From an uncultured virus (IMG/VR IMGVR_UViG_649633094_000002) (Duplodnaviria; Heunggongvirae; Uroviricota; Caudoviricetes), in IMG/VR virus record IMGVR_UViG_649633094_000002: DNA of 64,000 bases. The stretch is one strand, 5' to 3'. Both the position numbers and the translations under genes were made by a program. Below the pieces are notes generated by a model. The model searched no databases. It was given only the letters and a program-made list of their open reading frames with translations, and was not told where the DNA came from. This document shows positions 3,266 through 22,239 of this stretch, piece after piece. The first letter of the stretch is position 1; the number at the start of each line of letters is the position of its first letter.

Positions 3266-4153
3266 TCACTGCAATTTTAATATATTAACAGCTATATTTT
3301 TAGCTGTTCCAAGTAATACCAAATAAATAATTCTAAAATAACTCTCTTGGTGTTTAAGCATATCGATAATTCTACTTTTATTCACTTTCCATCCTTGTTT
3401 ACAGGCATATACTAGTTCATTCTCTAATCTGATTCTTAACGCATTTGGATATTTTTCATATAAAAGTGAGTATTTCGACACGAGCATAAGTAATCCGTCT
3501 AATTTTTTTTTCGAATTCAATGATATTGAGTTCTCATTAATTCTATAATAAGAAAGAGCTTCTTCTATATATCCAATTCTCCCGATTTGAATCATTCTAA
3601 TGAATAAATCCTGATCTTGATAAGAGGGCATCTCTTCGTCTAGCATTTTTGAATCTATAAAGCACTGTTTTGTAAAAGATACATTTGAAAACCCACCTAA
3701 ATAATTATTGGATAGCATTAGTTCTAATGCATTTTCATATTCTGGATTCTCACGTTTACTATATCGGTGTTTATTTTTACCGAAGATAATAAAGTCTGAA
3801 TATACAATATCATATCCTTTATGAAACATTTCAACTATTTTAGAGACTCTTGTATTCTCCCAATAATCATCATCATCCAGAAATGATAAATACATCCCGC
3901 TTGATTTCAAAGCACCAAGATTTCTAGAATAATTTGCGCCCATCTGACGCTCATTAATATAATACTGGATTGCTCCTTGATATGAACGAACCATTTTTTC
4001 AATTTGAATATTATATTGATTTGAGGGAGCATCGTTAACTATGATGATCTCTATGTTACTATACGTTTGTTTAATTACGCTTTCAACCGCCTCTCGAAGT
4101 ATTTCAACATCTCGATTACAAGTTGTAATTATCACAGAAAACAATTCTTTCAT
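3266..4153 (-). CDS. Family 2 glycosyltransferase
   Basis: SVIITTCNR, IIIVND, GANYSRNLG, FLDDDD. Confidence 0.9.
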   Translation of the reverse strand: MKELFSVIITTCNRDVEILREAVESVIKQTYSNIEIIIVNDAPSNQYNIQIEKMVRSYQGAIQYYINERQMGANYSRNLGALKSSGMYLSFLDDDDYWENTRVSKIVEMFHKGYDIVYSDFIIFGKNKHRYSKRENPEYENALELMLSNNYLGGFSNVSFTKQCFIDSKMLDEEMPSYQDQDLFIRMIQIGRIGYIEEALSYYRINENSISLNSKKKLDGLLMLVSKYSLLYEKYPNALRIRLENELVYACKQGWKVNKSRIIDMLKHQESYFRIIYLVLLGTAKNIAVNILKLQ

Positions 4154-12305: not shown

Positions 12306-14528
12306 TTAAAGATCTTTGCAAATATTCATCAGCAGTTCAGCCAACTCATCTGTCAGCTTACCCTGCCGTTTCTTCTGCATCTGAGTACACCGCCACTTAA
12401 CAAGGTCAAGGTCATTATAGCGATCCTTACTCGCTGGGTGTCTGCCGAACTTTTGCAGGTACTCCATGTAACTGTCGTAGTATTTCATAAAGACTTCGTT
12501 TTTGCGTCTCTGACGCAGATTTTCAAGCGGTATGCCAGCCTCTTTAAACCGCTCGACGCGGTGCGCCTGCATATTTCCGGCTAAATACAAAACGACCTGA
12601 CTTTTATACCATTTTCCCAGCTTGTATCCATCAACAACCTCATTGATGCCCGGCAGGCTGCCAAACTCTTTGAAATAGCTTCTAAGCCTATTGAAAGCGT
12701 TCAACCACTCTTCTTCATGTTTGTCCCAGGTAAAACCAATCGAATCAAGCATCGCAATACGTTCTTCCGACAGCTGCCCGCGATACCTTGCGGTACGCTG
12801 AGAGTTCGCCCAAACGTATAGAACCTTTAATTCCGGGTCTAACTTTACATCGGCATAATTCGGGAAACGTCCATGCTGCTTCACGAATTCGCCGAGCCTA
12901 TCACAGTTATCCTGCCAATACTCTGCCATACCCTTAGTGATCTCGCAGCCCAGCGCAATAAGCTTTTGGACTTTGTCTTCCTCAAGCGTACCATTGCGGT
13001 ACTTGTTTTTTTGCGTTGTGACCCATCTGTACAGACTTGTCTTGTCCGAACCGAACTCCGATTTTTTCGGGAAATGCCCGAGCGATTCAGTGATTGATTT
13101 CAGTTCTTCAAAATACATCTGCCAGCTTGCCTCATTGACATTCCACGGAAAACAGATACAGTTGAGCTTGTCAACACGATTCTTTGACAGCTTGCCCTGA
13201 TTGTTCAGAGTTCGCTGCTGATTAGCCCATTTGCCGATCAGAACTCCCTCATAAGAGATATTTCCGTCCGGGAAAGCATGATACTTCTCGGCGTACTCTT
13301 TGAGCAGCTCGAAGTTGAAATCCCAACTGTTGGCGAAAGTGTCATTCAACTCATTGAGTATCTCTCTGATGTCACGAACGTAGTCATACAACTCAAATTC
13401 GATCTCATCATCGTAATCGCCCTCACCTCGGGCTATTTCCATGAAACCGGCGTACTGCTGTGCCGTATCGCCTGTTTCGTAGTTGTTTACAATATCGAAG
13501 ATCAGAGGTTTTTTCTTTGAGTCGGAGCAAGCCAGCGCCCGCCCGAGCTGCTGATAGAAAACGTTTGCAGACTGCGTGGCGCGGAGCATGATGACCCCGT
13601 CCACGTCGTCGAAGTGAACGCCCTCGTTCAGCATATCAATGCAAAACAGCAGCTTTAATACATTACTGTCCTTATCACTCCTGAACTCCTCGAATTGTTT
13701 GTTCGACGCGCTGTTCTGAGCGTAGACCGTGTATTTATGAATATCGCGGTTGACTTTCGTGAACCACGAGTCGCATTCGCTGACCATTCTATGAAGCTGT
13801 TCCACGCTCGGACAGAAGACAATGAACTTGCCCGCCTTGTTGCGGATATGCTTCTCGAATATTTTGTCAATGCCGACATCAAGTTCGGCAATCATCGACT
13901 TTGCTTTTCTAATCTTACCCAGCAAGGCACTTTTCAGTCTCGGATTGCCCGACTGCTCGGCTTTCATTTCAAGCTGTTCTATGTCACCCCTGAAAGAATA
14001 CCATGAGGTAACATATATCGGCAGTGGAAGTATCTTTCTGCGAATTGCCTCAGCCAAACTCATGTTCACGGCATAGACACCGTTAAACAGTTCGTCCGCC
14101 ATGTTCCGTCCGCTGTCGAGATAGCGTATCGGAGTTGCCGACGTTCCGAACACCTTAGCACTCGGGTTGCCGTCAAGCAATCTCTGTACACCCTGCCCCC
14201 ACTCATCAGCACCGCAGCGGTGAAACTCGTCCAGTACGATGTAGTTGTACTCAGAGAACGCTTCGGTCTGCGACAGCTTGGTATATGTGAGAAAATCGGT
14301 GTTATCAAGTGAAATCCTGTTCTCGTCAGCAAGCGACTTCATCTGCTCAAATATGTAAGTCGATGGAGAGCAGACCGCAAAACGCTTATCGGCATTATCC
14401 TCGATGAGCTGCATGATGAGGTAGCTTTTGCCCGTTCCCGTAGGCTGCACCGCAGCGACCCTCTGCTCCGTCTGAAAAAGGCCCACCATGTTTGCATAAG
14501 TTTCACTATTGTGTTTATGCAAAAACAT
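12306..14528 (-). CDS. SF2 (DExH) helicase with C-terminal helicase-associated repeats
   Basis: PTGTGKS, LDEFH, SATP, DMLNEG, QQLGR; repeated W....F..L...G.FP....L..W...QR...G.L...R...L..IGF.W units; AAGGTGAGG RBS. Confidence 0.9.
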   Translation of the reverse strand: MFLHKHNSETYANMVGLFQTEQRVAAVQPTGTGKSYLIMQLIEDNADKRFAVCSPSTYIFEQMKSLADENRISLDNTDFLTYTKLSQTEAFSEYNYIVLDEFHRCGADEWGQGVQRLLDGNPSAKVFGTSATPIRYLDSGRNMADELFNGVYAVNMSLAEAIRRKILPLPIYVTSWYSFRGDIEQLEMKAEQSGNPRLKSALLGKIRKAKSMIAELDVGIDKIFEKHIRNKAGKFIVFCPSVEQLHRMVSECDSWFTKVNRDIHKYTVYAQNSASNKQFEEFRSDKDSNVLKLLFCIDMLNEGVHFDDVDGVIMLRATQSANVFYQQLGRALACSDSKKKPLIFDIVNNYETGDTAQQYAGFMEIARGEGDYDDEIEFELYDYVRDIREILNELNDTFANSWDFNFELLKEYAEKYHAFPDGNISYEGVLIGKWANQQRTLNNQGKLSKNRVDKLNCICFPWNVNEASWQMYFEELKSITESLGHFPKKSEFGSDKTSLYRWVTTQKNKYRNGTLEEDKVQKLIALGCEITKGMAEYWQDNCDRLGEFVKQHGRFPNYADVKLDPELKVLYVWANSQRTARYRGQLSEERIAMLDSIGFTWDKHEEEWLNAFNRLRSYFKEFGSLPGINEVVDGYKLGKWYKSQVVLYLAGNMQAHRVERFKEAGIPLENLRQRRKNEVFMKYYDSYMEYLQKFGRHPASKDRYNDLDLVKWRCTQMQKKRQGKLTDELAELLMNICKDL

Positions 14529-14571
14529 AGTCCTCACCTTCTCAGATATTTAGAAATAATTGGAATTATTT

Positions 14572-14596
14572 TTCTCAAATCAACTTATTTCAAGAA
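14572..14596. repeat. Cassette 1 left recombination site (inverted partner of 15942-15966)
   Basis: TTCTCAAAT-CAACTTA-TTTCAAGAA; 14576-14590 matches the reverse complement of 15948-15962 at 13/15 with an identical central 7-mer. Confidence 0.6.
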
Positions 14597-14599
14597 AAG

Positions 14600-14621
14600 T
14601 TCAATAACAAATGTTATTGAA
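14600..14621. promoter_or_regulatory. Perfect palindrome, possible operator
   Basis: TTCAATAACA-AA-TGTTATTGAA, between the leftward promoter and the left site. Confidence 0.5.
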
Positions 14622-14671
14622 TAGTGGAAACGCTTGGAACTAACGATTTTCAGCCACTTTCATACTTTATG

Positions 14672-14700
14672 ATTATAGCATTTATTTGTTTCATTGTCAA
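14672..14700 (-). promoter_or_regulatory. Consensus sigma-A promoter with extended -10, pointing at the helicase/polysaccharide genes
   Basis: Minus strand TTGACA-17 bp-TATAAT with TGn before the -10. Confidence 0.85.
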
Positions 14701-14787
14701 GAAGAAAGCGATTAATTCGTGAATATGATAGAATTTACATAAGTTTCACGCCATAATTTGATAATATTTGATTTTGGAGGAGTCAAA

Positions 14788-15867
14788 ATGAGTACAGGAA
14801 CCACGTACTTACGAAAGGACGGACGTTGGGAAACAAGGGTTTCCCTTGGAGTTGTTGACGGCAAACGTCAGACAAAGTCATTCTACGGGCGCACAAAAGA
14901 GGAAGCCGAGGGCAAGATGATGGCTGAGGTCATGAACGGTATGAGCTTTCAGATAACGGGACTTACCGTCAAGGCGCTATGTATGGAATGGCTGTCGGTC
15001 AACAGCCACAGGGTCAAGGTATCCACGCAGGCTAATTATATGACAAAATTTGAAAAGCACATTCTACCGTACTTTGGCGATAAAATGTGCTATGAGATCA
15101 CTTCAAAAACAGTCTATGGGTTCATACAGGCGAAACTCGATGAGGGGCTTTCTGCTGGATATGTTTCCAACATTCTGGTGCTGCTGAAAACTGTTTTCAA
15201 GTACGCGCAGAAGGAGTACCACATTCTCAATCCCTTTGACAACGTCATCATGCCCAAAAGTACAAAGTCCGAAACTCGTCTGCTGACGAAGAAGGAGCAG
15301 AAAAAGCTAAAGGAATACCTGAAAAGCAACGTCAATACAGCAACCCTCGGCATTTCACTTGCTATTTCTATGGGGCTGCGCATTGGTGAGATTTGCGGTC
15401 TAACTTGGCAGGATATTGACTTTAAGTGCCGCACTCTGACCGTCAGGCGGACAGTACAGCGTATTCGGGTGAAAGGCGAAGCAAAAAAGACAAAGATCGT
15501 CATTCTGCCGCCTAAAAGTAAAAGTTCCTTCCGCGAGATACCCATTCCCACGAGTGTGTTTGCTATGCTCAAAAACCTGCGGAGCACGCCCGAACACTAC
15601 ATATTGAGCGACAGCACCGAGCCAAAAGAACCGCGAATGATGTACTATGACTACGTCGAGATTCTGAAAGAACTCGGTCTTCCGTCCGTTAAATTCCATA
15701 GCCTTCGTCACGCCGCTGCGAGCAACGCTATCGAAGCCGGATTCGATGTTAAGACGCTTTCCGAGGTATTAGGACACTCGCGGATAGAAATGACAATGAA
15801 TCTTTATGTGCATTCCAACATGGACAGGAAGCGCAAGCTGATGGACAAGCTGGATATAGATACCTAA
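14788..15867 (+). CDS. Tyrosine recombinase 1 with N-terminal arm-binding domain
   Basis: RKDGRWE N-terminus; catalytic GLRIGE, FHSLRH, LGHS, NLYVH; GGAGG RBS. Confidence 0.95.
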   Translation: MSTGTTYLRKDGRWETRVSLGVVDGKRQTKSFYGRTKEEAEGKMMAEVMNGMSFQITGLTVKALCMEWLSVNSHRVKVSTQANYMTKFEKHILPYFGDKMCYEITSKTVYGFIQAKLDEGLSAGYVSNILVLLKTVFKYAQKEYHILNPFDNVIMPKSTKSETRLLTKKEQKKLKEYLKSNVNTATLGISLAISMGLRIGEICGLTWQDIDFKCRTLTVRRTVQRIRVKGEAKKTKIVILPPKSKSSFREIPIPTSVFAMLKNLRSTPEHYILSDSTEPKEPRMMYYDYVEILKELGLPSVKFHSLRHAAASNAIEAGFDVKTLSEVLGHSRIEMTMNLYVHSNMDRKRKLMDKLDIDT

Positions 15868-15941
15868 CGTCAATTATTCGTCAAAAAACCGTCGGGGATA
15901 GCTCCATAAAATGGCGCTATCCCGCGATATTTCGACGTATT

Positions 15942-15966
15942 GCCGCAAATTAAGTTGTTTTGTTAC
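15942..15966. repeat. Cassette 1 right recombination site
   Basis: GCCGCAAAT-TAAGTTG-TTTTGTTAC; preceded by a CGTCA arm-type array at 15868-15893. Confidence 0.6.
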
Positions 15967-15968
15967 AA

Positions 15969-16013
15969 ACCGAGATAGCACTTCCCTGCGCTATTTCGGT
16001 ATTTTCATTTTTT
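15969..16013 (+). terminator. Intrinsic terminator (possibly bidirectional)
   Basis: ACCGAGATAGC...GCTATTTCGGT stem followed by ATTTTCATTTTTT. Confidence 0.75.
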
Positions 16014-16469
16014 AAGCAGATTTATTATCCGTTTTCCACATTTTTCAGCATACTTCATCGCCTTAGCCGCTCCGCCGCCTTTTTCAACAGCACAGATCAC
16101 AAGGTCACTGCGGTCAACCATGCTTTTGTTTCTCTCATAGATAGCCGCCTTCGGATGCGCTGCCGCAGCTTCGGAACAGATCTCGACTTCATCATAATAG
16201 GCTTCGTAGCTTTCACGATTATCACGGTATTCCGCCCGTTCATACGGCAGCACAAGTATCAGCGACGCATTTCCGCAAGCGTAGTCATCGATCGCCTTTC
16301 GTACAGTTGAAGCCGCCAGCTGATCGAAATCGCCGTCCCTGCCTACAAGAAATTCGACGTACTCTTTTGATTTTATCAATTCCCGCAGAATTGTGAGCAG
16401 TCTTTTCTCCAGCGCAAACATATTCGGCAGTTTCCTATGCCCGAAAAACGTCACCGTGTAAATATTCAT
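16005..16469 (-). CDS. SLOG/YpsA (DUF1273)-like nucleotide-binding protein
   Basis: TFFGHR, FLVGRDGDFD, LVLPY, RNKSMVDRSDLVI, GGAAKAMKYA; GAGGCGGT RBS. Confidence 0.7.
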   Translation of the reverse strand: MNIYTVTFFGHRKLPNMFALEKRLLTILRELIKSKEYVEFLVGRDGDFDQLAASTVRKAIDDYACGNASLILVLPYERAEYRDNRESYEAYYDEVEICSEAAAAHPKAAIYERNKSMVDRSDLVICAVEKGGGAAKAMKYAEKCGKRIINLLKK

Positions 16470-16523
16470 ACCGCACCGCCTCAGAATCCGCTTAGGAAAT
16501 CCGACGAAATTTTTACCGTCAAC

Positions 16524-16552
16524 TTGCTTTTTGAAAGTCGATAAAGTATAAT
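16524..16552 (+). promoter_or_regulatory. Sigma-A-like promoter outside cassette 2, pointing into it
   Basis: TTGCTT-17 bp-TATAAT. Confidence 0.6.
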
Positions 16553-16573
16553 AAATACGTGGGGTTTATGACT

Positions 16574-16593
16574 TTTCGCAAAGTCTGTGATTT
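16574..16593. repeat. Cassette 2 left inverted repeat (20 bp)
   Basis: TTTCGCAAAGTCTGTGATTT, exact reverse complement of 17851-17870. Confidence 0.92.
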
Positions 16594-16659
16594 CAGGGCG
16601 AAACTGTTCAGAAGCCCGATTTTACAGGCTATTTATATTTTCCTTGACGGCAAATTACG

Positions 16660-17745
16660 TTAAGCTCCCATCGTCATGAGGTCCATGCAGGACTTCTTGT
16701 GGCTCATTGACGAATGCACATATCGGTCAAGAGTAATCTGGGACGACGAGTGTCCGAGTATCTCAGAGAGCGTCTTAACGTCAAATCCGATCTCAATCGC
16801 TTCTGAAGCCATTTTATGGCGGAGACTATGGTAGGTGAAGCTGCCGAGCCCGAGCCTGTTAAGTATGCTCTTAAATCGGTATTGCAGCGTTCTCGGCTCA
16901 ATAGGCGTACCCGTTCCCGTCAGCACATAGCTGTCGGGCTTTCTTTTTAACTCCGTAAGCATCGGCACAAGGCACTCGGGAATGGGTATCTCACGCTTGG
17001 ATGACTGGCTTTTAGGCTCTGTTATGATGATTTTTGTCTTGCTTTTGCCGTCATAATTCTGTATGCGCTGTATAGTGTGTCTGACGTAAAGCACACGCTT
17101 TTCTATGTCAATATCCTGCCAGCTGAGAGCACAAACCTCGCCTATTCTCATGCCCGTAAAAAGCGACAGCGCCACGGCGAGAGTCGTTTCGTTATGGTTC
17201 GTATTTATGTAGTACACGAGCTTTCTCTTTTCCTCGGCAGTCATAATATTTATCTCGGGCTTCGCTTTCTTGGGCATCACCACGCCCTCGATCACGTTTG
17301 TAATGTTGTACTCGTTCGCTGCATAGCGGTACATCGCCTTCATCACTGTAATTATATCGCCCACATACCTTGCTGAAAGCCCCTGACTCAGCTTTTTCTG
17401 GATAAATTCGGAGATCATCCTTGTCTTGATCGAAGCGCATACTTTAGCCCCAAATTCGGGCAGTATATGGCGTTCTATTTTCATGCGGTAGTTGGAAGCG
17501 GTGGAATCCTTTATCCTGTTTTTCATAACAAAAAGCCATTCCCACGCAAGCTCTCTGACGGTCATTACCGTTATGCTCTCACCGCTTGTGTTCCTGCCGC
17601 CTGTTTCCTCCATCATCTTGTATTCCGCTTCTTCCTGCGTTTTACCGTAGAAGGAGCGGTATTTTTTATGTCCGTCTTTATCTTCAACACGAATGCGGCA
17701 CTCCCAGCGCCCGTCCTTTCTTTTGTACGTTGTTCCCTTATTCAT
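16660..17745 (-). CDS. Tyrosine recombinase 2, paralogue of 14788..15867
   Basis: KRKDGRWE; GMRIGE, YHSLRH, LGHS, DRYVH; GGAGG RBS. Confidence 0.95.
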   Translation of the reverse strand: MNKGTTYKRKDGRWECRIRVEDKDGHKKYRSFYGKTQEEAEYKMMEETGGRNTSGESITVMTVRELAWEWLFVMKNRIKDSTASNYRMKIERHILPEFGAKVCASIKTRMISEFIQKKLSQGLSARYVGDIITVMKAMYRYAANEYNITNVIEGVVMPKKAKPEINIMTAEEKRKLVYYINTNHNETTLAVALSLFTGMRIGEVCALSWQDIDIEKRVLYVRHTIQRIQNYDGKSKTKIIITEPKSQSSKREIPIPECLVPMLTELKRKPDSYVLTGTGTPIEPRTLQYRFKSILNRLGLGSFTYHSLRHKMASEAIEIGFDVKTLSEILGHSSSQITLDRYVHSSMSHKKSCMDLMTMGA

Positions 17746-17785
17746 ATATTCCTCCGTTTAATTCTTACTTTTTACATTTTTTTCA

Positions 17786-17814
17786 TTGACAAACACCGCA
17801 AAATCGTGTATAAT
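17786..17814 (+). promoter_or_regulatory. Consensus sigma-A promoter inside cassette 2, divergent from the recombinase
   Basis: TTGACA-17 bp-TATAAT. Confidence 0.85.
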
Positions 17815-17850
17815 AGTAGTGTTGAGATAGTGCTATGATGGCATTTCTCA

Positions 17851-17870
17851 AAATCACAGACTTTGCGAAA
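17851..17870. repeat. Cassette 2 right inverted repeat (20 bp)
   Basis: AAATCACAGACTTTGCGAAA within the dyad TTCTCAAAA-TCACAGA-CTTTGCGAA. Confidence 0.92.
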
Positions 17871-17915
17871 CCCTTACAGCAAAAAAAGACTTTTGCGCTG
17901 TATAGGGCTTTTTTT
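17871..17915 (+). terminator. Intrinsic terminator immediately outside the right inverted repeat
   Basis: CCCTTACAGC...GCTGTATAGGG stem followed by C and T7. Confidence 0.75.
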
Positions 17916-17964
17916 ATAAAAATTTTTCCGGGGACGATGACGGCACCGCCCCGGATTTTTACCG

Positions 17965-20900
17965 TCAGCGTTTTGGCTTCTTCGCTACCGGCTTTTTCTG
18001 TTCCTCCTGTTCCTGCTTGTGCTCACGTTCGGGAGCCTTGAAGGATCTGAGTTCCTTGAAACCAAAAGTATCCACATAGTAAGCCTTTCCCTTTGCGACA
18101 ACAACATCTGATACAGACAAGCTGTGTCCTTTGAAGTCCGCAGGGTGGTCAACATTGAATTTTGTATAGACGGCTTCAAGCTGCCTGCCTATGGTATCCC
18201 CCGTCTTTTCAAAAGGAGAATAGTCGCCCTCATACACCTTGTCATAGGTCGAAATGTCGGGCTTCTTCCCCTGTTCCGCAAGCCGTTCCAGGCTGATGAA
18301 GCGCATATCGCGGGTATCATCACCGCCTTTGAGCTGATAGATCTCGAATGTAGGCTTGTCCTGTGAGGGAATAGGCTGTGTAGGCGAAGCGATAGCAGCT
18401 TTCAGCGCGTCATTACAAGCGAAGTAGTCGCCATAGCACAATACGCCGGTCTGATTGTAGTTTCCATCGTTATTATCGAGGGTGTACTTCACAAGCATAT
18501 GCGTAGTATCGGGCTTATCGTCGCACTTTTCTATGCGGTACTGATTTGGTGCAAGCCCCTGTGACGGATCATACATACGGGCTGATATTTCGTCGATAGT
18601 CTGCGGGTGCATAAGCTCAACGTGAGCCTCGCCCTTACGCTTTTCATACACTTCCATAAGTGCTTCTTTTGCATCGGGTACTGACGATATGCCGTCCTTT
18701 ACGACAGTTACAATACCGTCAGCAGCAATGCCCACAACAGCATACTTGCCGTTGTTGTTCTGACGTACCCCGTAATACTCGGTCGGAAAATCGGCTGTCC
18801 CAGCGGTGTCTATCCTATGCTCATACGCCGCCTTGAAACGCTCAAATTCCTCCTTGTTTTCGGGGGCGTATGTTTTCTCTGAGAGCATATCATAGACCTC
18901 GGGTGTCATATCGCCTGTCCCTGGCATACCGTTTGCATCAATGTAATGTGCGTTTATCTTAGTGACCTTTTTGTAGAAGTCGGCAGCGGGCAGACCGCTT
19001 TCTTTCTGCTCACGATCGTATGCGTCATTGTCCAGCCAGCCAATGCCCTCAACAAAATATTCATCGGCAGAAGTATTGTAATACTTGGTTTCGGGGATAC
19101 CCCTGAAATCGTCCGAGATAGACACCTTTTCCACCGCAAGCAGGTACTTGTCCTTGAAAAAGTCAGGAAGCTCCTTCTTTTCTTCAACAACAGCGTGTTC
19201 TCTCTGTAAATGGAATTTCTTGTCGATCAATTCCTCAAAAAGATGGTTCATGATGACGGGGTGTGTTTCCGTGAGATATTTCAGCCTTGTTTTGTCGCTG
19301 TCAAACATATACTGCCGCGCCATATCCTTGACCTCATTTGTAAAACGTCCGTCCTGCATTTTTAGCTGTATCGTCGCAGCGACCGTATACATAGCACGTT
19401 CGATACCAAACTTGTCCGTGAGGGTCTGAACGAACCCCGACAGGTTTCTGTTCTCATACGCGGAGTGGATATTCTGCTCAATGTAGTCACGGCAAGCCTG
19501 CGAAGCCTTTATGCTTGCTTGCAGATCTGAGATCCGCCCATTCATTTTCGCATCCATGTAGGACTCCACCACGACAGGAACGGACTTGTAATCAAAAACA
19601 GCATTTGACCGCGGCGGCATATCCGAGAGCGTATCAAAAAGCGCATCGGGAATAGTGCCGCCCTGTCTTGGGATATTATCGAAATCTCCCGTGAATGGAC
19701 GAGCGTTTCCGAAGCCGCCTCTGTCAGCATAAGCCGGTGCGCCGTATGCCGGCTGATTGTTCTGCTGATAATTATTCTGGTTATTGGTGCGGCTGTTCTG
19801 AGAATACATCTGCTTTACCTCAGCGACCGCCGCTTCATAGCGAGGAATATCAGCCTTGTTTATGGTTATCGTGGTCGTATATCCTTTACGCAAACCGCTG
19901 AACCTAACGCCGTACTCATTCAACTTCTGTGCGATATTATCGGCGTGACGATTTTTCAGCTTCGGATAATACTGTAAATCGGTTTTCTGTCCCAACTGGT
20001 CATAGGGTGTGTTGCCGATGACATTCGGATTGCTCTGCTGCGGCTGTGCCGGCTGATTATTGTAGCCATTCTGCTGAAACGCCCCCTGCTGTCTGCCGCT
20101 CGTCATATTACCGAGCCTTTGCAGCAGCACATTAGCTTCACCGGATACCTGTGCATCACCTACAGTGCTTACGACCTTACTCAGAAAAGTATTTATGCTC
20201 TGAACATCGCCATTGGCGATATTATTCGCAACACTTTGTATACCGCGCTCACGGTCGCCTGCAACATTGCGGTATCCGTTTGTGTTGTAGTTATACATAA
20301 ATGCTTCGATGTCACGCGCAAGCATATCGGGACTGTCATTATTCTGCTGATAACCGCCGCCCTGCCTGCTGTTGTTACGCTGATCGTACATCTGCTTGAC
20401 CTTATCGACCGCCGCTTCGTAGCGAGGAATATCCGCTGAATTTATGGTAATCGTAGTAGTGCCGCCCTTTATCACGCCGCTGTATCTGATACCGTCCGCA
20501 TCGAGCTGGCGAGCGATATTCTGAGCGTGTTTATTGTTCAGCCCCTTGTAATACTGGAGCTGTCCCCTGCCGCCAAGCTGATCGTAAGGCGTGTTGCCGA
20601 TAATGTTACTGTTCCTCTGCTGATAGCCGCCCTGCTGCGGAAAATTTCTCTGATTGTAGCTATCATAAAACTGCTGATTTCTCACGTTTCCTAAACCTCC
20701 CTTGTCGAAATCAAGTTCCGCCGAATACTGATACTCGCTTAATGCTATGTTTGCCGTGTCGGGAGCATTACGCACCTCGTCTATGCTTGTCGCCTGTTTT
20801 CCTTCGATGAAAACATCAAGACCCCTGCCCCACATTTCAATAGCTTCCGCTTTCGATACGGGGTACAAATCGGGGTTATCCTCGGCAGCAACAATGCGCT

Positions 20901-22239
20901 TCGGCTCTTTTTCAATACCGTACAGACCGGAGAAGTTTTCAATCTCCTCACGGCTTTCAGCCATGCCCTCTGTACCGTCTGGATACAAAAGATAGACTGC
21001 TTCACCCCTATCATAAGCGGCGAGGGCCTCCTCAGTTGTATCAATAGGGTTCATATACTGAAAGTCGTAGCCGTAGCTATTGCGCTGATTTATCGTGTTG
21101 GCGGTATCATCGATAGTTTTGAACACCGATCCGATATCCGTTTCATTTTCAGCCAGCTCCATGATTTTTGCGGTGTCGCTGTCCTCAAAAACAACTCCGT
21201 TCTGCTGAACTATATCGAGATACATTTCCGCCTTCTGAACATTTGATAATTCGGTATCGTCCATAATTTCGTTGACCGTCAGATCACGCTTTTTGTATTT
21301 CAGAAGTTCCGAGTCAATAGCCGTGAAAAGTGTCTGCGATGTTTTCTGAATTTCATCAAGAAACTTGTTCAGTTGGTCAAGCTGTTTTCCCTCCGACCAT
21401 GAAGCAATATACGGGAAAGAATAGTCCGAAGTGTTAACCCCCAGCTTCTCGCAGACGATAAATGCAATTGATTCCGCCTGCACCTCTTTTTCATTTCGTG
21501 GTGATTTGGTCGTAACGATCTTTTTATCGGGATCGTGCAGCAGACAGTGAGCAGATTCGTGAACGACAGTCTTTAGCACCTGCTCGCCGCTCATACCTGT
21601 CTTTATTATAATACTTTTTGCCGAGGGACTGTAGTATCCTTTTGCGCCTCCGGTTATGGTGCGATACTCAGGTGCAATCCCCGTTGCTTTCTTTATCCCC
21701 TTGAAAATAACGTTCAGCTTTTCTTCGTCTATCTCGCCCACAAGCTCCTGAACAGGGTCAGGGATTGGCTTTCCGTCCGTCTGCGAAAGGTCGAAAACAT
21801 ACTGTTTCTTGAACCGCATTTCAACAATGTTCTTTTCCACCGTTTCCATCTGTTCGGTGCCGTCATCGTTATACAGTTTATTTCCCCACTCGTCCTCCGC
21901 CTGACGTTCTATCTCTACAAACTGATTAGTTTTATGGGGAACGGGCGACATTATGATAATGCCGCTTTCTCCTTTGTTGACAGAGCGACCAAGTTTCTTC
22001 CACAGCCCGAACGAACCCACAAGAGTCGCGTCCGGGCGCTGTAAATTGATAAGCATCGTATTTCTCGCAGAGTAGTCAGTGAACTTCGACACGAATTTCA
22101 GATACTCCTTGTACTTCTCCGATGAAAATACTGCGTGCACACCGTTATCAATACGCTTGAATATATCCTGCATTTCCTGTTGCAGCCTTCGCTGATACTC
22201 GGCACGTTCCTCGGGGGTAAAACTCTTTTTCCAAGCCAT
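17965..22239 (-). CDS. Polyvalent protein: ArdC-like ssDNA-binding domain, HExxH metallopeptidase-like domain, duplicated ~75-aa module, DUF3849-like and YodL-like domains
   Basis: YSARNTMLI..QRPDAT.VGSF..WKKLGRSV.KGE; VVHESAH; EVQAESIAF; C-terminal FEIYQLK...HPADFKGHSLSVSDVV...YYVDTFGF. Confidence 0.85.
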   Translation of the reverse strand: MAWKKSFTPEERAEYQRRLQQEMQDIFKRIDNGVHAVFSSEKYKEYLKFVSKFTDYSARNTMLINLQRPDATLVGSFGLWKKLGRSVNKGESGIIIMSPVPHKTNQFVEIERQAEDEWGNKLYNDDGTEQMETVEKNIVEMRFKKQYVFDLSQTDGKPIPDPVQELVGEIDEEKLNVIFKGIKKATGIAPEYRTITGGAKGYYSPSAKSIIIKTGMSGEQVLKTVVHESAHCLLHDPDKKIVTTKSPRNEKEVQAESIAFIVCEKLGVNTSDYSFPYIASWSEGKQLDQLNKFLDEIQKTSQTLFTAIDSELLKYKKRDLTVNEIMDDTELSNVQKAEMYLDIVQQNGVVFEDSDTAKIMELAENETDIGSVFKTIDDTANTINQRNSYGYDFQYMNPIDTTEEALAAYDRGEAVYLLYPDGTEGMAESREEIENFSGLYGIEKEPKRIVAAEDNPDLYPVSKAEAIEMWGRGLDVFIEGKQATSIDEVRNAPDTANIALSEYQYSAELDFDKGGLGNVRNQQFYDSYNQRNFPQQGGYQQRNSNIIGNTPYDQLGGRGQLQYYKGLNNKHAQNIARQLDADGIRYSGVIKGGTTTITINSADIPRYEAAVDKVKQMYDQRNNSRQGGGYQQNNDSPDMLARDIEAFMYNYNTNGYRNVAGDRERGIQSVANNIANGDVQSINTFLSKVVSTVGDAQVSGEANVLLQRLGNMTSGRQQGAFQQNGYNNQPAQPQQSNPNVIGNTPYDQLGQKTDLQYYPKLKNRHADNIAQKLNEYGVRFSGLRKGYTTTITINKADIPRYEAAVAEVKQMYSQNSRTNNQNNYQQNNQPAYGAPAYADRGGFGNARPFTGDFDNIPRQGGTIPDALFDTLSDMPPRSNAVFDYKSVPVVVESYMDAKMNGRISDLQASIKASQACRDYIEQNIHSAYENRNLSGFVQTLTDKFGIERAMYTVAATIQLKMQDGRFTNEVKDMARQYMFDSDKTRLKYLTETHPVIMNHLFEELIDKKFHLQREHAVVEEKKELPDFFKDKYLLAVEKVSISDDFRGIPETKYYNTSADEYFVEGIGWLDNDAYDREQKESGLPAADFYKKVTKINAHYIDANGMPGTGDMTPEVYDMLSEKTYAPENKEEFERFKAAYEHRIDTAGTADFPTEYYGVRQNNNGKYAVVGIAADGIVTVVKDGISSVPDAKEALMEVYEKRKGEAHVELMHPQTIDEISARMYDPSQGLAPNQYRIEKCDDKPDTTHMLVKYTLDNNDGNYNQTGVLCYGDYFACNDALKAAIASPTQPIPSQDKPTFEIYQLKGGDDTRDMRFISLERLAEQGKKPDISTYDKVYEGDYSPFEKTGDTIGRQLEAVYTKFNVDHPADFKGHSLSVSDVVVAKGKAYYVDTFGFKELRSFKAPEREHKQEQEEQKKPVAKKPKR

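Follow-up and report, generated by a model that had tools for sequence, protein, structure and literature searches.

A family of recombinase-encoding, probably invertible promoter cassettes, and two adjacent members of it

Where two genes for tyrosine recombinases lie side by side, each bracketed by a pair of short inverted sites and each accompanied by a consensus promoter that points out of the bracketed segment, the question arises of whether such structures act as mobile elements, as fixed promoter modules, or as devices that turn neighbouring genes on and off. This arrangement is found at positions 14572-17967 of a 64,000-nt stretch (the 'window') of the record IMGVR_UViG_649633094_000002, catalogued as an uncultured virus. 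The analysis described here makes it probable that each of the two cassettes is a self-contained invertible promoter switch, a conclusion that is carried by the anatomy of the cassettes, by the conservation of that anatomy across a large family of relatives, and by the occurrence of related cassettes in opposite orientations between the same flanks.

Anatomy of the cassettes and of their family

Both cassettes are 1.3-1.4 kb in length and present the same succession of parts: a site, an outward sigma-70 promoter, a tyrosine recombinase gene, direct repeats of the CGTCA type, and a second site in inverted orientation. Each site (S1 to S4, from left to right) is built from a 7-bp centre between two 9-bp arms, spanning 25 bp, and the centres of a pair are mutually inverted. 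This shared layout, together with the four sites and their two 7-bp overlaps (CAACTTA and TCACAGA), had been proposed in a first-pass annotation made from the letters alone, and every one of its elements was recovered in place in both cassettes (Table 1). The promoters sit on the opposite strand to the recombinase gene, in the interval separating its start codon from the promoter-side site, and read away from that gene; a scan across 3.9 kb returned 8 promoter-like sites against 6.7 expected, of which the only two perfect matches (12/12) were the cassette promoters, in keeping with the consensus quality previously ascribed to them. Terminator-like hairpins were located outside S4, where a terminator had been predicted, and likewise outside S2, each cassette thus being bordered by a gene on one flank and by such hairpins on the other. 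The hairpins outside S4 are situated between the right cassette and the 3′ end of a convergent gene encoding a protein of 1424 amino acids (aa).

The inverted repeat of the right cassette extends over 20 nt and is 100% complementary (16574-16593 and 17851-17870), while that of the left cassette extends over 22 nt at 77% (14569-14590 and 15948-15969). The sites of other members of the family, 111 distinct ones, were used to construct a site model from which the window's own sites were excluded; at a threshold of at least 12 bits, this model selected only three places in the entire window, corresponding to S4, S1 and S3, and five shuffled sequences scored with the same model gave 0-4 matches each with a maximum of 14.7 bits. 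S2 falls below that threshold when taken alone, yet it lies at the family's usual distance beyond the stop codon and carries the exact 7-mer of S1. A generic inverted-repeat scan missed the left pair and chose a chance 10-mer in its place; the pair was positioned by hand, using the sites given in the first-pass annotation, and subsequently checked against the site model, and its identification therefore rests on that model together with the shared 7-mer.

A scan of a public genome collection, using one genome per species, indicated that the family is seemingly widespread, with at least 581 relatives among at least 602 candidate stretches; of 400 genomes sampled from the class, 46 contained relatives at an E value of 1e-70 or better, as counted by recombinase match alone. 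The best 80 of those at least 581 relatives, combined with the four copies of the window's own genome, provided 84 loci for study, drawn mostly from metagenome-assembled genomes (MAGs) of Ruminococcus, Oscillospiraceae and other Clostridia from rumen and from rabbit, mouse and human gut. Eight copies with too short a flank (L013, L016, L023, L039, L051, L055, L077 and L080) were omitted, leaving 76. Flanking inverted repeats were significant, defined as a score reached by none of 60 shuffles, in 68 of these, which answered in the affirmative a check that the first-pass annotation had itself suggested, namely whether homologues are flanked by inverted sites. The repeat test failed or was weak at eight loci (the left window cassette, L027, L053, L056, L073, L075, L078 and L085). 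The arms are found 79-332 bp 5′ of the start codon (mostly 90-260) and 9-187 bp 3′ of the stop codon (mostly 50-105). Within the window's own genome there are four paralogous cassettes, with recombinases that are 43-49% identical, inverted sites flanking all of them, outward promoters matching at 11-12 of 12 positions, and four different 7-bp centres.

The outward promoter is conserved across the family in both place and direction. Among 69 cassettes (the 68 with significant repeats and the left cassette placed by hand), a promoter on the strand opposite the recombinase matched at 10 or more of 12 positions in 58, at 11 or more in 36, and perfectly in 21; promoter matches on the recombinase strand gave counts of 10 and 1, the former being those that scored at least 10/12. 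The arms of the sites are similarly conserved (TTCGCAAA / TTTGCGAA). The central positions of the aligned sites hold 0.03-0.3 bits and are nearly free to vary between cassettes, with 57 distinct 7-bp centres among 68 cassettes, and the centre is identical (inverted) between both sites of one cassette in 65 of 68. The notion of cassette-specific overlaps, first raised for the two window copies, thus extends to all four centres of the genome and to most of the family.

The direct repeats also recur: two or more SGTCA repeats on the recombinase strand were present in 28 of the 69 stretches 3′ of the gene, as compared to a shuffle mean of 0.36 and maximum of 2, and none were present on the opposite strand of the same stretches. 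Their spacing was 10-13 bp in 25 of 32 cases, and mostly 11-12 bp. A further conserved motif, CTTGAAAATTGAATA, recurs in approximately ten cassettes (L004, L015, L017, L021, L046, L047, L049, L068 and L079), where it separates the CGTCA repeats from the 3′-side site; it is absent from both window cassettes.

Table 1. Features of the two cassettes and of their bordering genes, in window coordinates.
Feature	Position	Strand	Description
Helicase gene, 743 aa; predicted present target of left cassette	12306..14537	-	ResIII, Helicase_C and five HA domains
S1, promoter-side site, left cassette	14572..14596		TTCTCAAAT-CAACTTA-TTTCAAGAA; site model 17.9 bits
Outward promoter, left cassette	14672..14700 (14700->14672)	-	TTGACA-17-TATAAT, 12/12, TG extension; toward helicase gene
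Left recombinase gene, 359 aa	14788..15867	+	Tyrosine recombinase; Phage_integrase and SAM-like N-terminal domains
Three direct repeats, candidate arm-type sites	15868..15894	+	CGTCA, CGTCA, CGTCG, 11 bp apart; directly 3′ of left stop codon
Hairpin without U run	15891..15928	+	Within left cassette, past the repeats; -24.9 kcal/mol, z -4.2
S2, 3′-side site, left cassette	15942..15966		Reverse complement GTAACAAAA-CAACTTA-ATTTGCGGC; + strand centre TAAGTTG; 10.8 bits
Terminator-like hairpin with U run	15969..16013	+	Outside S2; -17.7 kcal/mol, z -7.1
SLOG/YpsA-like gene, 154 aa; predicted target of right cassette after a flip	16005..16469	-	27% identity, E 1e-11, to YpsA-matching open reading frame of L022
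S3, 3′-side site, right cassette	16575..16599		Reverse complement GCCCTGAAA-TCACAGA-CTTTGCGAA; + strand centre TCTGTGA; 14.2 bits
Two direct repeats, candidate arm-type sites	16645..16659	-	CGTAA, CGTCA, 10 bp apart; 3′ of right stop codon
Right recombinase gene, 361 aa	16660..17745	-	Tyrosine recombinase; Phage_integrase and SAM-like N-terminal domains
Outward promoter, right cassette	17786..17814	+	TTGACA-17-TATAAT, 12/12; now reading into terminator-like hairpins
S4, promoter-side site, right cassette	17845..17869		TTCTCAAAA-TCACAGA-CTTTGCGAA; 21.2 bits, top site of window
Two terminator-like hairpins with U runs	17871..17960	+	Outside S4; -14.8 kcal/mol, z -3.1; -16.9 kcal/mol, z -1.6

Opposite orientations in related loci

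All family loci were oriented by their recombinase gene, so that an inversion appears as flanks that are swapped and reversed. Related loci from different assemblies or MAGs supplied three sets in which the same flanks (86-100% identity) surround cassettes of opposite orientation. In the clearest of these, a 1368-bp cassette is 100% identical and on the same strand in L029 and L031, and the right flank of one matches, once reversed, the left flank of the other with 99.9% identity over 1494 bp (98.4% over 247 bp for the reciprocal comparison), with the breakpoints falling within the 25-bp repeats; L028 matches the arrangement of L029, and L030 that of L031. The flanks of L086 and L089 are likewise swapped and reversed, at 98.2% and 95.5% identity, as are those of L061 and L062, at 87% and 91%. 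Since the same cassettes occur both ways round between equal flanks, members of this family do invert in nature, and the inversion that had been proposed for such segments is established for relatives, with the copies of the window itself being seen in one orientation only.

An additional locus, L065, resembles the left cassette both in its recombinase (60% identical) and in a helicase flank (76% identical), and contains one outer flank and centre joined to both ends of its cassette, with the identity ending exactly past the centre; this pattern is what an assembler yields when a sample holds both orientations. In the same locus, a 136-bp perfect inverted duplication (L065:2176-2311 and 3664-3799) comprising the 5′ end and leader of the helicase gene flanks the cassette and reaches the contig end. 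The window and L065 have their helicase homologue on the promoter side of the cassette; L036 and L052 have it on the opposite side.

Recombinases, mechanism and competing explanations

The two window recombinases are full-length paralogues of 49% identity, as had been recognized at the outset, and their matches to PF00589 (Phage_integrase) reach E values of 1.6e-25 and 1.6e-27; only that domain and the SAM-like domain were among their matches, with the Resolvase domain being absent from them. In an alignment of 34 family sequences the catalytic residues R200, K245, R309, H332 and Y342 are invariant, and H306 is nearly so. An AlphaFold model (predicted local distance difference test score, pLDDT, of 87.6) places three strands (residues 5-8, 14-21 and 27-34) and a helix (37-52) at the N-terminus, a block with a pLDDT of 75-90; a flexible linker connects this domain with the core-binding and catalytic ones. 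Among solved proteins, Tn1549 Int is the closest in sequence and fold, with full-length lambda Int next (363 aligned columns). A profile of the N-terminal 65 residues gave no significant match to the sequences of the PDB (the best, at E 0.061, being an unrelated terpene synthase), and the only Pfam match to that domain was a weak one to AP2 (E 0.0012) under the cut-off; with sequence searches so weak, a structure model was needed to reveal the fold. No NCBIfam model reached its cut-off for the recombinase, and the FimB/FimE-type invertase models NF007370 and NF007371 remained below threshold, at 19-27 bits against cut-offs of 221-222. Judged by the modelled N-terminal domain and the fold matches, the enzymes are integrases of the lambda/Tn1549 type with a predicted arm-binding domain, which supports the type assignment made for them in the first pass.

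These parts suggest the following mechanism. The cassette's own tyrosine recombinase would bind the two dyad sites that bracket it, and strand exchange inside the shared 7-bp centre would invert the intervening 1.3-1.4 kb, with the recombinase gene and its presumably strong outward promoter included. In one orientation that promoter would drive the gene beyond the site, and in the other it would meet a terminator; for the left cassette, the hairpin immediately outside S2 would halt the promoter after a flip. The CGTCA-type repeats beside the 3′-side site are probable arm-type sites for the N-terminal domain, and may help to pair the two sites of the same cassette. Because the 7-bp centres of the two window cassettes are unrelated, they should not recombine with one another, and would then constitute two independent bits. 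The earlier proposal of two independent switches with four states accordingly holds in its layout, with a gene on one side of each cassette and a terminator on the other, while their independence is what the different centres lead one to expect.

Several observations weigh against this view of the cassettes as working switches. A promoter of the recombinase gene's own, at 10/12 or better, was not found in 59 of 69 cassettes, including three of the four in the window's genome. Two cassettes of a single MAG, L045 and L048, share the same centre, and private centres are therefore not universal. Many of the family loci are near-duplicates (L028-L031, L042-L050 and L061/L062 among them), and the family counts consequently overstate the number of independent cases. 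Because the repeat in L065 reaches the contig end, it is possible that it represents a true inverted duplication of the 5′ end of the helicase gene, with the cassette toggling between two helicase copies. S2 fits the family arms poorly (10.8 bits), and the left cassette may for that reason flip rarely or be locked ON. Finally, the flipped form of either window cassette was not found: the contigs of three isolate runs, which may stem from the source strain, and the close relatives L013, L093 and L094 all share the order of the window; Logan contigs from those three isolates and one bovine gut metagenome, when compared with positions 13500-19000, contained no joints. Assembled contigs drop rare variants, however, and a single orientation in them neither counts against flipping nor supports it. 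In one of those isolate runs (X2, with a depth of approximately 390), short alternative contigs differing by one letter, at depths of 3.9 and 35.8, overlap the helicase gene at positions 14028-14109, which suggests a minority variant in the culture.

The explanation that best survives beside the preferred one, though a distinctly less probable one, is that the window copies are locked, with the left a promoter module fixed ON, the right one fixed OFF, and their recombinase genes relics. Such locking would account for the single orientation shared by three isolate assemblies and as many close relatives, for the degenerate arms of S2, and for the failure to find a clear promoter for either recombinase gene. 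It is less easily reconciled with the state of the components: both recombinase genes are intact and retain all of the conserved catalytic residues, S3 and S4 form a 20-nt repeat without mismatch, and the 7-bp centres are intact in both pairs, while any minority orientation would be invisible in consensus assemblies.

That the cassettes are instead small mobile elements, which insert and excise by way of terminal inverted repeats and carry a promoter only as a side effect, as some insertion sequences do, appears improbable. This idea draws upon the presence of several copies per genome in varied contexts, and upon two relatives, L095 and L097, which are without the left cassette and harbor at its exact position a lone site-like sequence, GCCGTGAAA-TAGCATA-TTTCGAGAG (L097:5497-5530 and L095:2190-2225), past the terminator of the SLOG-like gene and ahead of the start of the helicase gene. 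The lone sequence could be the footprint or the landing site of cassette loss or gain. (It was also considered as a third site of the cassette upstream, and rejected, its centre being TAGCATA as opposed to ATCAATC.) Transposition nonetheless fits poorly with centres that are inverted in 65 of 68 cassettes, which with a tyrosine recombinase leads to inversion and not excision, with the finding of the same cassette both ways between identical flanks in three sets of loci, and with a promoter whose place and direction are conserved; the paralogues within the genome, being only 43-49% identical and having different centres, are moreover not recent transpositions. Least credible of all is the idea that the repeats are chance matches, or substrates for general homologous recombination in which the neighbouring recombinase has no part, given that, for all the weakness of the left repeat and its having been missed by the generic scan, the arms are conserved at fixed distances from the gene throughout the family, the site model picks these places and no others in 64 kb, and repeats of 20-27 bp are very short for recombination of the RecA type.

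Bordering genes, known systems and significance

The start codon of the helicase gene lies 35 bp outside S1, downstream of the left outward promoter; from this arrangement we infer that the left cassette is currently ON for that gene. The right cassette, with its promoter facing terminator-like hairpins, is predicted to be OFF at present, and a flip would bring the SLOG-like gene under its control. The 743-aa helicase exhibits sub-threshold similarity to type IV restriction and PbeA models of PADLOC and NCBIfam. No strong terminator was found 3′ of its gene, and readthrough into sugar-transferase and acetyltransferase genes is therefore possible. The 154-aa SLOG-like product had no family match in Pfam, PADLOC or NCBIfam. 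In L095 and L097 the SLOG-like gene and, directly behind it, the helicase gene form one operon headed by a single cassette; the genome of the window thus appears to have split that operon into two separately switched units. A second scan, of metagenomes and anchored on the 154-aa gene, produced 80 loci, of which four (L093, L094, L095 and L097, all colinear) have a cassette upstream in the arrangement of the window, while in two others (L100 and L134) a recombinase of the family is encoded downstream of the homologue. Most homologues of the gene (54-60% identical) have no family recombinase nearby.

The first-pass annotation had placed the two cassettes where a polysaccharide locus meets an integrative and conjugative element, a position that looks incidental, the immediate targets being the helicase and SLOG-like genes that form one operon in relatives. 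On the right, from 17965-22239 onward to approximately 56000, the minus strand encodes the 1424-aa protein (ArdC-N/DUF3849/YodL) followed by very large open reading frames of 2936 and 2109 aa, an arrangement consistent with a conjugative element beside the cassettes. On the left, an open reading frame of 154 aa at 11004-11468 matches only the first 54 of 179 positions of Bac_transf, and may be a truncated gene of the polysaccharide locus.

The third cassette of the genome (contig C3, L173:6353-13628) directs its promoter toward distant tyrosine recombinase genes of 305 and 314 aa, which are followed by four open reading frames without a Pfam match, and has three large serine recombinase genes on its other side; the same module is found in L041 and L100 with the cassette turned round. 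The fourth (contig C1, L174:167-6690) directs its promoter toward two genes, one for a PLD-nuclease/SNF2 helicase of 1051 aa and the other for a methyltransferase of 1093 aa that has a Type ISP specificity domain, which together look like a phase-variable restriction system; a relaxase/MobC module lies on the other side of this cassette. Across the family, the flanking genes include those for Wzz/CpsB capsule functions, pilins, LRR, Sel1 and dockerin surface proteins, LytTR regulators, restriction, helicase, patatin, SLOG and nonribosomal peptide synthetase proteins, which are typical phase-variable cargo. Among 61 loci with both flanks available, a gene is found on the promoter side only in 13 (which look ON), on the other side only in 32 (which look OFF), on both sides in 15, and on neither in 1. 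In L014 (2224-3651), a gene with a Cas12f1-like TNB (TnpB-type) domain lies on the 3′ side of the cassette.

In its layout, each cassette is closest to the Salmonella H segment, in which the Hin invertase acts upon hixL and hixR to control the fljBA promoter, and the Gin, Cin and Pin invertases form comparable systems; there, as here, a recombinase gene and an outward promoter lie inside a segment between inverted sites, and one orientation drives the neighbouring gene. Hin, however, is a serine recombinase that relies upon a Fis-bound enhancer, whereas the enzymes encoded in the window belong to the lambda/Tn1549-type tyrosine recombinases and have dyad sites of the form 9-7-9. The flipping of a promoter between short inverted repeats by a tyrosine recombinase is shared with fimS and FimB/FimE of E. 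coli and with the promoter invertons of gut Bacteroidales and of Clostridioides difficile (RecV), where it results in ON/OFF phase variation. Those invertons are a few hundred base pairs in length and are served by a recombinase encoded outside of them, often one that serves several switches, whereas the cassettes described here hold the recombinase inside the segment and have a private centre each. With the integrases of Tn1549, Tn916 and lambda, the window enzymes share a three-domain build and direct repeats, candidate arm-type sites, beside a core site. Those integrases integrate and excise elements between directly repeated core sites, aided by helper proteins and by arm sites to either side; here, in contrast, the core sites are inverted (as are the centres, in the two window cassettes as well as in 65 of 68 across the family), they bracket only the integrase gene and a promoter, and the repeats are largely confined to one side.

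A published study links a Clostridia inverton group (139) to an invertase group (35) of the tyrosine recombinase/integrase family encoded nearby; its example invertons span approximately 250 bp (for instance, 3525576-3525832), which places the recombinase outside the segment, and the cassettes of the window are set apart from those examples at least by their size and by having the recombinase inside (PMC11892184). Full-text searches of the literature gave no description of recombinase-inside promoter cassettes in Clostridia, in line with the earlier remark that this architecture was not recognized from a described system. Standard inverton searches concentrate on short invertons, and a length of 1.3-1.4 kb exceeds these, which could explain the lack of reports.

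The conserved arms and free 7-bp centres suggest a natural set of mutually insulated pairs of recombinase and site, with possible use as genetic memory devices. A more ambitious interpretation, which is offered tentatively, is that the family amounts to a natural modular set of one-bit switches, in which an integrase of the heterobivalent kind became a dedicated invertase, its address set only by the freely evolvable centre, the cassettes being portable and the lone site in L095 and L097 being a footprint or landing pad. If that were true, many cassettes could operate side by side in one genome without cross-talk, two adjacent bits would here have split what is a single operon in relatives, and the family would spread phase variation to new operons, including those for defence, capsules, pili and regulators.

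While phase variation by promoter inversion has been well studied in Bacteroidales, enterobacteria and C. difficile, far less is known of it in the Ruminococcus and Oscillospiraceae groups that dominate fibre degradation in the rumen and gut. Cassettes of this family front genes for capsules, pili, surface proteins, regulators, and restriction or defence, and their switching could therefore explain heterogeneity between strains in phage resistance and in surface structure.

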